Source: a virus (taxonomy: Duplodnaviria; Heunggongvirae; Uroviricota; Caudoviricetes). From it: a stretch of DNA of 25,729 nt. The position numbers were made by a program, and so were the translations under genes. Every line of letters starts with the position of its first letter. Positions within the stretch are counted from its first letter, which is position 1. The notes beneath the pieces were generated by a model. It was given only the letters and a program-made list of their open reading frames with translations, did no database searches and had not been told where the DNA came from. Location: IMG/VR virus record IMGVR_UViG_2585427783_000006, positions 1-25,729 of that record; one strand, given 5' to 3'. Positions 22,760-23,836 of the stretch are shown here, piece after piece.

Positions 22760-23836
22760 TTACCCCCTGAAGCCCGGTGGAATTTCGGTATCCGGTTCAG
22801 AAATATGATTCACACAACGCTGGTTGTTCGTGCCGCTTACCGGGAGCAGCCAGGGGTTTTCAAAATTCCGGTCCGGTCCAAAAAACGTCGTCGCTCGCTG
22901 AACAAATTCCGTTCCCGTTTTCCCGGTAGCCGCAAGGTATCTTGCGTAACGCCTCACGCCATCCAGCATGGCCTCTGGTGACACCCCCTCGCGTAATCTG
23001 GCCTTCCAGGCACTGAAAGCGGATTTCTTCGGGTTTGCCCCAGCACGCAACGGGTATTCCCGCCAGACCTGTTCGAACACATCCGGATAATCCACTCGTC
23101 TCACAGGCTGCCCGGTGTTTTCCGTGACTACCCGATCGGCTTCCCGCTGAATGGCGGAATCGGCTTCAGGCTGCTGCAGTTGGTGTGATTGCTCCGGCCT
23201 TGCGGTCATCACCTGCTGCACAGCGCCCGAATCGGCTTTCAGCGCATACGCTGAATCGGCTTCCGGTGTCGTGCCTGCTGGCTGACCAAGATTGACGGTC
23301 TGAACATCCCCTGCCTGGTTCGTGGCGTTTTTTACGCCATGGACCATAGTGTTTTGATCTTCTTGATCTGTATCTTTATCTGTATCTTTATCTGTCGTGA
23401 CTCGTCGTGACATGTGCGTGACATTTCGTGACGCGCCGTGACAATCGCCATTTTGTTCCCGCTTTCTTTCCCTCTCTCGCTGCGCCCTCTTGCGCTCTGC
23501 AGGAGATTTTGCGGTTTGCGAAATATTGCCGTTGTCCTCTTTAAGCACCTGGCGTTTTTCCCATCCAGTGATTAAATCACCATCAAGTACCCGCCCCTGC
23601 ATCGTCTGCAAAATTGAATCAATTACCTCTTCTGTCACGTCGAGCGCACTTGCCAAATCTTCTGTCGTGACATCAATGTGACCTCGCGTGACATTTCGTG
23701 ACGCGCTCACCAGGAGGTGGATATACACTGCCATCACTGTTGCAATTGACTGCCCTGACACCCTGGCAATTGTTCGCCACTTAGGGTCATTTGGCATGTC
23801 ATGCCATAATCTGAGCCAGGCGTTAGCCATACTCAC
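22760..23836 (-). CDS. Replication initiator (O-like; DUF1376/YdaU-like N-terminal domain) with the origin iterons embedded in its coding sequence
   Basis: N-terminus WLRLWHDMPNDPKWRTIARVSGQSIATVMAVYIHLL. Sits in the O position after the cro-like and YdaT-like genes. Contains two clusters of CGTGAC repeats. Confidence 0.65.
   Translation of the reverse strand: MSMANAWLRLWHDMPNDPKWRTIARVSGQSIATVMAVYIHLLVSASRNVTRGHIDVTTEDLASALDVTEEVIDSILQTMQGRVLDGDLITGWEKRQVLKEDNGNISQTAKSPAERKRAQRERERKREQNGDCHGASRNVTHMSRRVTTDKDTDKDTDQEDQNTMVHGVKNATNQAGDVQTVNLGQPAGTTPEADSAYALKADSGAVQQVMTARPEQSHQLQQPEADSAIQREADRVVTENTGQPVRRVDYPDVFEQVWREYPLRAGANPKKSAFSAWKARLREGVSPEAMLDGVRRYARYLAATGKTGTEFVQRATTFFGPDRNFENPWLLPVSGTNNQRCVNHISEPDTEIPPGFRG
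23394..23442. repeat. Iteron cluster 1: five CGTGAC hexamers spaced at 10-11 bp (candidate replication origin)
   Basis: CGTGAC starts at 23396, 23406, 23417, 23427 and 23437, preceded by a TATCTTTATCTG tandem duplication. Confidence 0.65.
23635..23705. repeat. Iteron cluster 2: CGTGAC/GTCACG repeats at 10-bp phasing, including a 20-bp exact copy of a cluster-1 unit
   Basis: CGTGACATTTCGTGACGCGC occurs at 23417-23436 and again at 23686-23705; further CGTGAC at 23666 and inverted GTCACG at 23635. Confidence 0.65.

Follow-up and report, generated by a model that had tools for sequence, protein, structure and literature searches.

Does the initiator gene of a lambdoid prophage hold the origin from which its own product starts replication? 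The question is raised by a 25,729-nucleotide stretch of DNA from a virus of the Caudoviricetes (IMG/VR record IMGVR_UViG_2585427783_000006, positions 1 to 25,729), referred to below as the window, in which copies of the hexamer CGTGAC, or GTCACG on the complementary strand, are clustered inside a minus-strand gene at 22760-23830 that encodes a 356-residue protein named "phage replisome organizer" by NCBI. The initial annotation, made without database searches, had proposed these clusters as a candidate replication origin embedded in the initiator gene, analogous to lambda ori in the O gene, and the comparative evidence presented here supports that proposal. With a probability of roughly 0.8 the two repeat arrays and the AT-rich tract beside them constitute an iteron-type origin bound by its own initiator in a lambdoid (Rac/Qin-like) Escherichia coli prophage; this reading is a deduction from sequence, drawn from the conserved architecture of the arrays, the frozen synonymous sites, the universal AT-rich tract, and the covariation between iterons and initiator residues.

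Phased hexamer arrays in the initiator gene

The repeats form two arrays on the gene strand. Array A occupies positions 23666-23702 (minus strand; gene nucleotides 129-165; amino acids 43-55) and consists of four direct units, GTCACG, GTCACG, GTCACA, and GTCACG, spaced by 10, 10, and 11 bp, so that on the plus strand CGTGAC starts at 23666, 23687, and 23697 and the one-mismatch copy TGTGAC at 23677. Array B, the core array, lies at 23396-23442 (minus strand; gene nucleotides 389-435; amino acids 130-145) and contains five direct GTCACG units spaced by 10, 10, 11, and 10 bp, with plus-strand starts at 23396, 23406, 23417, 23427, and 23437 (10, 11, 10, and 10 bp in that direction). A single inverted copy, CGTGAC on the gene strand (23634-23639, plus strand), is found 32 bp past array A in the codons GAC GTG ACA of D64, V65, and T66. 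Because the period is 10-11 bp, all iteron copies are expected on one face of the helix. An iteron-type (theta) origin is characterized by at least three same-strand helically phased repeats, and the two arrays hold four and five units, respectively.

The spacing of the clusters at 10-11 bp, as described in the initial annotation, was borne out by the positions, by shuffles, and by synonymous resampling. In total the hexamer occurs 21 times in the window against 10.8 ± 3.1 expected, a count that 0 shuffles reached, and 9 of the 21 copies fall inside 312 bases. When the codons were resampled synonymously 20,000 times with the protein kept fixed, the mean was 0.79 copies and the maximum 5, compared with the 9 observed, and no hexamer exceeded 3 phased neighbour pairs, compared with the 6 observed. 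Phage Tritos (complete genome of 46,360 bp; 99.3%-identical) has no GTCACG clusters other than these two. The phased hexamer arrays are confirmed as real and beyond chance. The exact 20-bp repeat shared by both clusters was likewise recovered: the 20-mer CGTGACATTTCGTGACGCGC has exactly two exact occurrences, at 23417 and 23687. The tandem duplication reported before the first cluster is present as well, TATCTTTATCTG being found at 23371 and 23383, but it is really part of three tandem 12-mers on the plus strand at 23361-23396.

Selection at the DNA level

Repeats inside a coding region could simply reflect a repetitive peptide (V-T/S-R) or replication slippage and be without function as DNA, and such an explanation would agree with the similar peptides encoded by both arrays (ASRNVT...VTT) and with the variation of array length by indels. 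Here it is hardly conceivable, as it is already contradicted by frame usage, frozen codons, and synonymous resampling. A period of 10-11 bp cannot be divided by 3, and the hexamers make use of every reading frame: the nine copies give V-T four times, S-R three times, and C-H or G-H twice, and across the family the three frames are used 176, 158, and 146 times. The description of the arrays as encoding V-T dipeptides in the linker of the protein is not supported: V-T occurs four times and array B does lie in the linker, but S-R and C-H/G-H are encoded too and array A belongs to a folded domain.

Codon conservation was analysed in an alignment of 21 homologs from different genera with a mean pairwise identity of ~58%. 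In array A the codons GCG (20/21), TCA (20/21), AAT (18/19), GTC ACG (21/21, twice), and GGT CAC (21/21) are retained, in array B the codons CAC (19/19), TCA (21/21), and GTC (21/21), and the codons GAT AAA GAT that follow array B are equally near-invariant. Conserved residues outside the arrays have a normalised codon entropy of 0.7-1.0, with nearly all synonymous codons used; the freezing of synonymous positions is thus seen inside the arrays only. The V65 codon, within the inverted copy, is GTG in every homolog compared (18/18). About 16-17 of 29 loci with GTCACG iterons carry an inverted copy at +31 to +34, against 0/18 loci with CGAACG iterons. The encoded peptides change wholesale with the iteron class and the DNA periodicity is kept.

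The position of length differences leads in the same direction. Among close relatives (P0003, P0022, P0096, and P0057) these differences sit exactly in the arrays, at residues 48-49 and 129-140 of the window protein, and come in steps of 7 codons, that is, 21 bp or two iterons, the shortest multiple of the helical repeat that keeps the reading frame. Array A stands in another loop in three distant homologs (L151, L156, and L158), between helices 2 and 3 instead of the usual site between helices 3 and 4, ~45 bp upstream (gene nucleotides ~57-104), and its inserted peptide reads ...SRNVT...; the array has moved in the protein and yet has been retained as DNA, which points to a DNA-level element. 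According to these alignments the repeats are DNA elements under DNA-level selection and not peptide repeats. A side observation concerns a 302-residue E. coli version of the protein (P0020), which is without most of array B, the AT-rich tract, and part of the linker (window residues 135-225) and may represent an origin-defective, domesticated prophage copy.

Conserved layout and lineage-specific iterons

Homologous loci were collected by tblastn against phages and by a scan of one genome per species, which gave ~85 diverse loci from prophages of Gamma-, Beta-, and Alphaproteobacteria and from a few metagenome-assembled genomes assigned to Acidobacteria, Desulfovibrio relatives, and other phyla. 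The diversity came from the scan of genome contigs; the scan of viral contigs returned only copies that were 99-100% identical and for that reason unusable for covariation. For each locus the hexamer with the most same-strand neighbours at 10, 11, or 20-22 bp was chosen.

By this measure 3-7 phased neighbour pairs were found in 62 of 82 homologous loci, and in 441 control windows of 630 bp taken from the flanks of homologous loci no hexamer rose above 1 phased pair. The arrays occupy two constant places, gene nucleotides ~117-180 and ~345-450, with a family-wide spacing of 10 bp in 275 cases and of 11 bp in 45, with 2-6 units in array A and 2-7 in array B, and with a median distance of 258 bp between the starts of the two; for example, the O157:H7 prophage version has arrays of six and five units. 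Of 72 homologous loci, 59 have array A at its constant place, and array B is found in essentially all homologs with detectable arrays, including 13 distant loci without array A. The iteron itself differs by lineage: GTCACG was assigned to 31 loci, CGAACG to 19, GTAACG to 6, GCAACG to 3, and GGAACG and others to a few, the ACG half of the hexamer being invariant across lineages. Among the loci compared, the layout is conserved and the iteron sequence is lineage-specific wherever this N-terminal domain occurs; ~70 homologous prophage loci across Proteobacteria share this layout.

The AT-rich tract and the palindrome

Next to array B lies an AT-rich tract (23336-23395, minus strand), a candidate DNA-unwinding element, which is purine-only on the gene strand (ACAGATAAAGATACAGATAAAGATACAGATCAAGAAGATCAAAACAC), contains the three tandem 12-mers, and has a GC content of 0.35-0.38 compared with ~0.55-0.6 in its flanks. 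In the homologs the 60 bp past the last iteron are below their locus in GC content in 65/65 cases, by 0.17 on average, and the tract after array B is almost pure purine on the coding strand in these 65 loci, built of AGATAA, AGATAC, or AGAGAA units. An AT-rich candidate unwinding element adjacent to the repeats is a further property of iteron-type origins, and by sequence it is present both here (GC 0.35) and in 65/65 homologs.

Directly past the tract an imperfect palindrome is found at 23316-23346 (no strand assigned) with 13-nt arms, a 5-nt loop, and the perfect core TGGCGT-AAAAA-ACGCCA. A plus-strand "terminator" indicated at the same positions, 23316-23346, was rejected, being this palindrome adjoining the T-rich strand of the AT tract. 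Within the 110 nt past the last iteron of the homologs, the stem of the best perfect hairpin averages 5.8, compared with 4.7 for controls (Mann-Whitney p = 6e-10), and short palindromes, often with 4-nt loops (C-TGAC-G, C-TAAC-G), are often situated 30-75 nt past the last iteron.

These surroundings bear on the explanation that the arrays are initiator sites for autoregulation or copy control only, through roadblock, titration, or handcuffing, and that replication starts elsewhere. Array A lies only ~130 nt into the gene, where its occupation by protein could stop transcription or make it an operator, and plasmid iterons often have dual origin and control roles. Nevertheless, array B is flanked in 65/65 loci by the AT-rich, strand-asymmetric tract and then by the palindrome, the complete Tritos genome has no further iteron cluster, and control and origin roles are not mutually exclusive, so that a purely regulatory role is considered unlikely and an origin is preferred.

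Candidate iteron-reading residues of the initiator

Columns of the initiator alignment were ranked by how well they predict the iteron class, with residues encoded by the iterons set aside. The best predictors are K114 and Q117, three residues apart, between R113 and R118, which are themselves invariant or nearly so; they belong to a basic helix (amino acids 110-126, PAERKRAQRERERKREQ; coding region 23453-23503, minus strand) that is predicted in both AlphaFold models. The GTC class is paired with K/Q at 114/117 in 29 of 31 loci, and the other pairings are V/A with Y/F for GTA, S with H/R for GCA, A/S/G with W/Y/F/H for CGA, and K/W for GGA. At every level of backbone identity (calculated on amino acids 1-41 and 57-110) pairs of loci with the same iteron share both residues in 53-89%, against 5 of 1420 pairs with different iterons. 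Besides, both arrays switch iteron class together, even though 260 bp and a conserved domain separate them. This joint switching and the covariation with residues 114 and 117 argue for recognition of the arrays by their own initiator, with the basic helix as the putative reader.

The same data bear on whether the hexamers are instead sites for another protein, such as the CII/YdaT-like protein, the repressor, Cro, or a host factor, for example in a CII-type antisense promoter. Tetranucleotides repeated directly at a distance of 10 bp within coding regions serve lambda CII as recognition sites, a CII-like gene stands just upstream of the initiator gene, and a weak sigma-70-like match is found on the plus strand at 23418-23445. 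A ligand other than the initiator is very unlikely, however, as two residues of the initiator covary with the iteron sequence, arrays with as many as 4-7 units are unlike those of CII, and the arrays travel with the initiator N-terminal domain while the downstream gene is DnaC-like, DnaB-like, primase-helicase, P, or none and the upstream genes are unrelated. The initiator itself remains the probable ligand of the arrays. It was also observed that in locus L003 (gene nucleotides 312-363) and in other loci of the CGAACG class the array runs into the coding region of the presumed reader helix.

The initiator protein and its gene neighbourhood

The initiator gene is taken to begin with the ATG at 23830. 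A GTG start at 23836, given by the list of open reading frames (ORFs), is less likely, since the PHROG profile aligns from the methionine of ATG-23830 and GAGGTGA is found just upstream. The product matches PHROG 3729, "replication initiation protein", over its full length (E 1.5e-255; ORF amino acids 3-358 to profile positions 1-356 of 356). In the Pfam search of the full initiator no family was found at E ≤ 0.01, and Phage_rep_org_N (PF09681) is the sole recurring match, below its cut-off: in the initiator it has E 0.0091 and 16.4 bits against a cut-off of 23.3 bits (amino acids 5-123 to profile positions 1-119 of 121), and 5 of 33 family members match it, with a best E of 0.0014. The TIGR01714 match is of the same order (E 0.0091; 16.2 bits against a cut-off of 49.8). 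The designation of the gene as "O/YdaU-like" in the initial annotation did not hold, as neither Phage_rep_O nor DUF1376 was among the Pfam matches even at E ≤ 1 when the N-terminal 150 amino acids of 33 family members were searched. The Pfam search of the C-terminal 146 amino acids gave nothing meaningful, and a profile search of PDB sequences with the N-terminal alignment gave only a spurious match to ribosomal P2.

The protein is predicted to consist of an N-terminal winged-helix domain (amino acids 1-93), the basic helix, a disordered linker (128-244), and a helical C-terminal domain that ends in a DnaT-like tail. In the AlphaFold model of amino acids 1-130 (predicted local distance difference test score 76.9) helices are placed at 2-14, 16-25, and 29-45, followed by a loop at 46-55, helices at 56-63 and 67-77, a β-hairpin wing, a disordered segment at 96-108, and the basic helix at 110-127, while in a second model residues 128-244 are predicted as disordered before a small helical C-terminal domain. 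The modelled winged helix is structurally closest to the N-terminal domain (NTD) of DnaD and to CAP-type DNA binders and has a DnaD-NTD-type fold. On this model the coding sequence of array A covers the last part of helix 3 and the loop leading to helix 4, inside the winged-helix domain, and that of array B the beginning of the disordered linker.

The gene order, cI-like, cro-like, cII/YdaT-like, initiator, and Ren-like, is that of a lambdoid early-right operon. The repressor gene (S24/helix-turn-helix, 24646-25284, plus strand) is followed on the minus strand by P22-Cro-like, YdaT/CII-like, initiator, and DUF977/Ren-like genes and, further on, by a Q antiterminator. For two neighbours the labels of the libraries conflict: the gene upstream of the initiator (23902-24327, minus strand) is matched both by Pfam YdaT_toxin and by PHROG "CII-like transcriptional activator", and the downstream one (22297-22719, minus strand) is DUF977 in one library and "Ren-like exclusion protein" in another. 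An Rfam search of 22000-25729 returned no RNA family, and a promoter and terminator scan gave weak consensus matches only.

The DnaT-like tail and cassette mosaicism

At its C-terminus the initiator reads QRCVNHISEPDTEIPPGFRG, which almost coincides with the C-terminal tail of DnaT, a primosomal protein of the host. The last 25 residues (SGTNNQRCVNHISEPDTEIPPGFRG; 22763-22837, minus strand) resemble the DnaT C-terminal tail and form a candidate host-recruitment motif: in phmmer searches of PDB sequences the last 23-25 residues (…SEPDTEIPPGFRG) matched the DnaT chains 6aep, 2ru8, and 9zbt_D (residues 158-179) with E of 0.0024-0.0094, SEPDxxIPPGFRG being identical between the initiator tail and the DnaT chains, and the NCBIfam DnaT model NF002770 was matched over its last 24 positions only (E 0.0014). 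DnaT is a primosome component thought to bring in DnaB-DnaC (PMC13377028). In Tritos, a complete phage with this module, there is no annotated helicase, loader, or primase and no other replication gene. The tail may be a case of host mimicry for helicase recruitment, which would explain phage replication with a single replication gene.

The cassette of N-terminal domain and origin is mosaic, being joined to unrelated C-terminal domains and to varied partner genes (for example in L167 from E. coli O157:H7 and in L001, L002, and L005). The partner is lambda-P-like in O157:H7 (L167, gene 1949-2992, minus strand), DnaC-like in an Aeromonas phage, DnaB-like in a Ralstonia phage, and a primase/helicase-sized ORF of 609 amino acids in Pseudomonas phages; conversely, the C-terminal part of the window protein is joined to another N-terminus in Stx phage 75/02. 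A packaging (pac/cos) site was also considered for the element and set aside, because it travels with the replication gene across phages that differ otherwise and the Tritos terminase genes lie at the opposite end of the genome.

Proposed mechanism of initiation

In the proposed sequence of events the initiator would be made from a pR-type early transcript after prophage induction, and its DnaD-NTD-like winged-helix domain would oligomerise. The basic helix would read the iterons, with R113 and R118 at the invariant ACG and K114 and Q117 at the variable bases. The initiator would then fill array B as the core and array A as an auxiliary array ~260 bp upstream, with bending or looping of the DNA, the adjacent AT-rich tract would melt, and the C-terminal domain with the DnaT-like tail would bring in the host DnaB-DnaC.

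A more far-reaching version, which we put forward tentatively and regard as rather doubtful in its entirety, combines a residue code for the iteron bases, a self-referential constraint, and recruitment of the helicase by DnaT-tail mimicry. In it the code would be simple and switchable: the pairs K/Q, V/Y, S/H, A/W, and K/W at positions 114/117, on one face of the basic helix, would specify the two or three variable bases (GTC, GTA, GCA, CGA, and GGA), and the winged helix would be only an oligomerisation scaffold. Since the iterons lie in the initiator's own reading frame, each switch of specificity would have had to rewrite the loop and the linker of the initiator simultaneously.

Several points weigh against the origin and its proposed working. 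Array A is absent from 13 of 72 loci, and no DnaA boxes were found in the origin region, their window-wide count being that of chance. The basic helix is taken as the reader from covariation only, and in the CGAACG class the helix E-R codons GAA CGC resemble the iterons (L003), so that coding overlap could add to the correlation. In addition, PMC13377028 assigns no role or binding partner to the extreme DnaT tail, and in the full-text literature no published description, binding assay, ori cloning, or replication mapping was found for this family. As for related literature, the Eru1-3 replication modules of Stx phages (PMC8044961) were set aside as different proteins, and PMC8951638 contains no mention of this origin.

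Prevalence and significance

Of 5426 complete E. coli genomes, 2079 (38%) carry the 451-bp element, including O157:H7 prophages, where it has the mosaic form; in the Tritos phage record the origin is not annotated. The probable origin together with its specificity determinants may allow prediction of which co-resident prophages cross-activate or compete for initiators, and may offer a handle for blocking induction-dependent replication, which is relevant to toxin-converting phages. The pair is also a candidate compact origin and initiator for vector design, and ~70 natural variants that couple a change of iteron with a change at 114/117 form a data set for the evolution of DNA-binding specificity where the sites lie within the gene of the binder. 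Conceptually the surprise is moderate, because the origin-in-initiator design is already known from lambda and SPP1; here the probable origin belongs to a protein family in which no published description of it was found, is widespread, and comes with an unusually clean putative specificity code.

Comparison with known systems

The lambda origin lies inside the O gene and is composed of initiator-binding repeats beyond which, along the direction of transcription, lies an AT-rich unwinding region (PMC6022878, PMC7466680). The prophage element shares with it the location in the initiator's own gene, which is a functional analogy and not membership, the order of iterons and then AT-rich tract, the variation of repeat number among relatives (4 in lambda, 6 in Stx phages), the genomic place downstream of cro and cII in the pR operon, and the tolerance of the protein to in-frame indels in the ori region. 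It differs in that the initiator has no detectable homology to lambda O and does not belong to Phage_rep_O; lambda has four inverted repeats of 18 bp (~18-19 bp) as its iterons, with an O dimer on each, whereas the prophage units are ~10-bp direct repeats with a 6-bp core in two arrays ~260 bp apart; and this phage lacks a P-like loader gene after the initiator gene, where the O157:H7 mosaic variant does have one.

The oriL of SPP1 is situated inside gene 38, where AB boxes bound by G38P, an initiator without an AAA+ domain, stand beside an AT-rich DNA-unwinding element (PMC5737612). The common features are an origin in a replisome-organizer gene, repeated boxes beside an AT-rich tract, an initiator without an AAA+ domain, and the same functional label. 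The full-length Phage_rep_org_N match is weak, and this Pfam/TIGRFAM match is below threshold (16.4 against 23.3 bits). On the other hand, SPP1 has its own helicase G40P and loader G39P and a second site, oriR, and this phage has neither, and the hosts are Firmicutes in the one case and Proteobacteria in the other.

Plasmid theta origins (RK2 oriV, pPS10, and R6K) have iterons of 17-22 bp located outside the rep gene and usually DnaA boxes. They resemble the prophage element in the helically phased direct repeats, the winged-helix initiator, and the adjoining AT-rich repeats of 12-13 bp, and the three 12-mers at 23361-23396 recall the 13-mers of the oriC type, whereas DnaA boxes are absent here and the Rep proteins are dimer/monomer winged-helix pairs unrelated in sequence. 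The sequence identity to DnaD is only 9-10%; DnaD is recruited by DnaA and does not bind iterons in its own gene, and the initiator's C-terminal domain is unrelated to it by sequence search. Belonging by sequence to the protein family of neither, the prophage initiator and its origin would, by analogy, work like lambda ori with O and SPP1 oriL with G38P.

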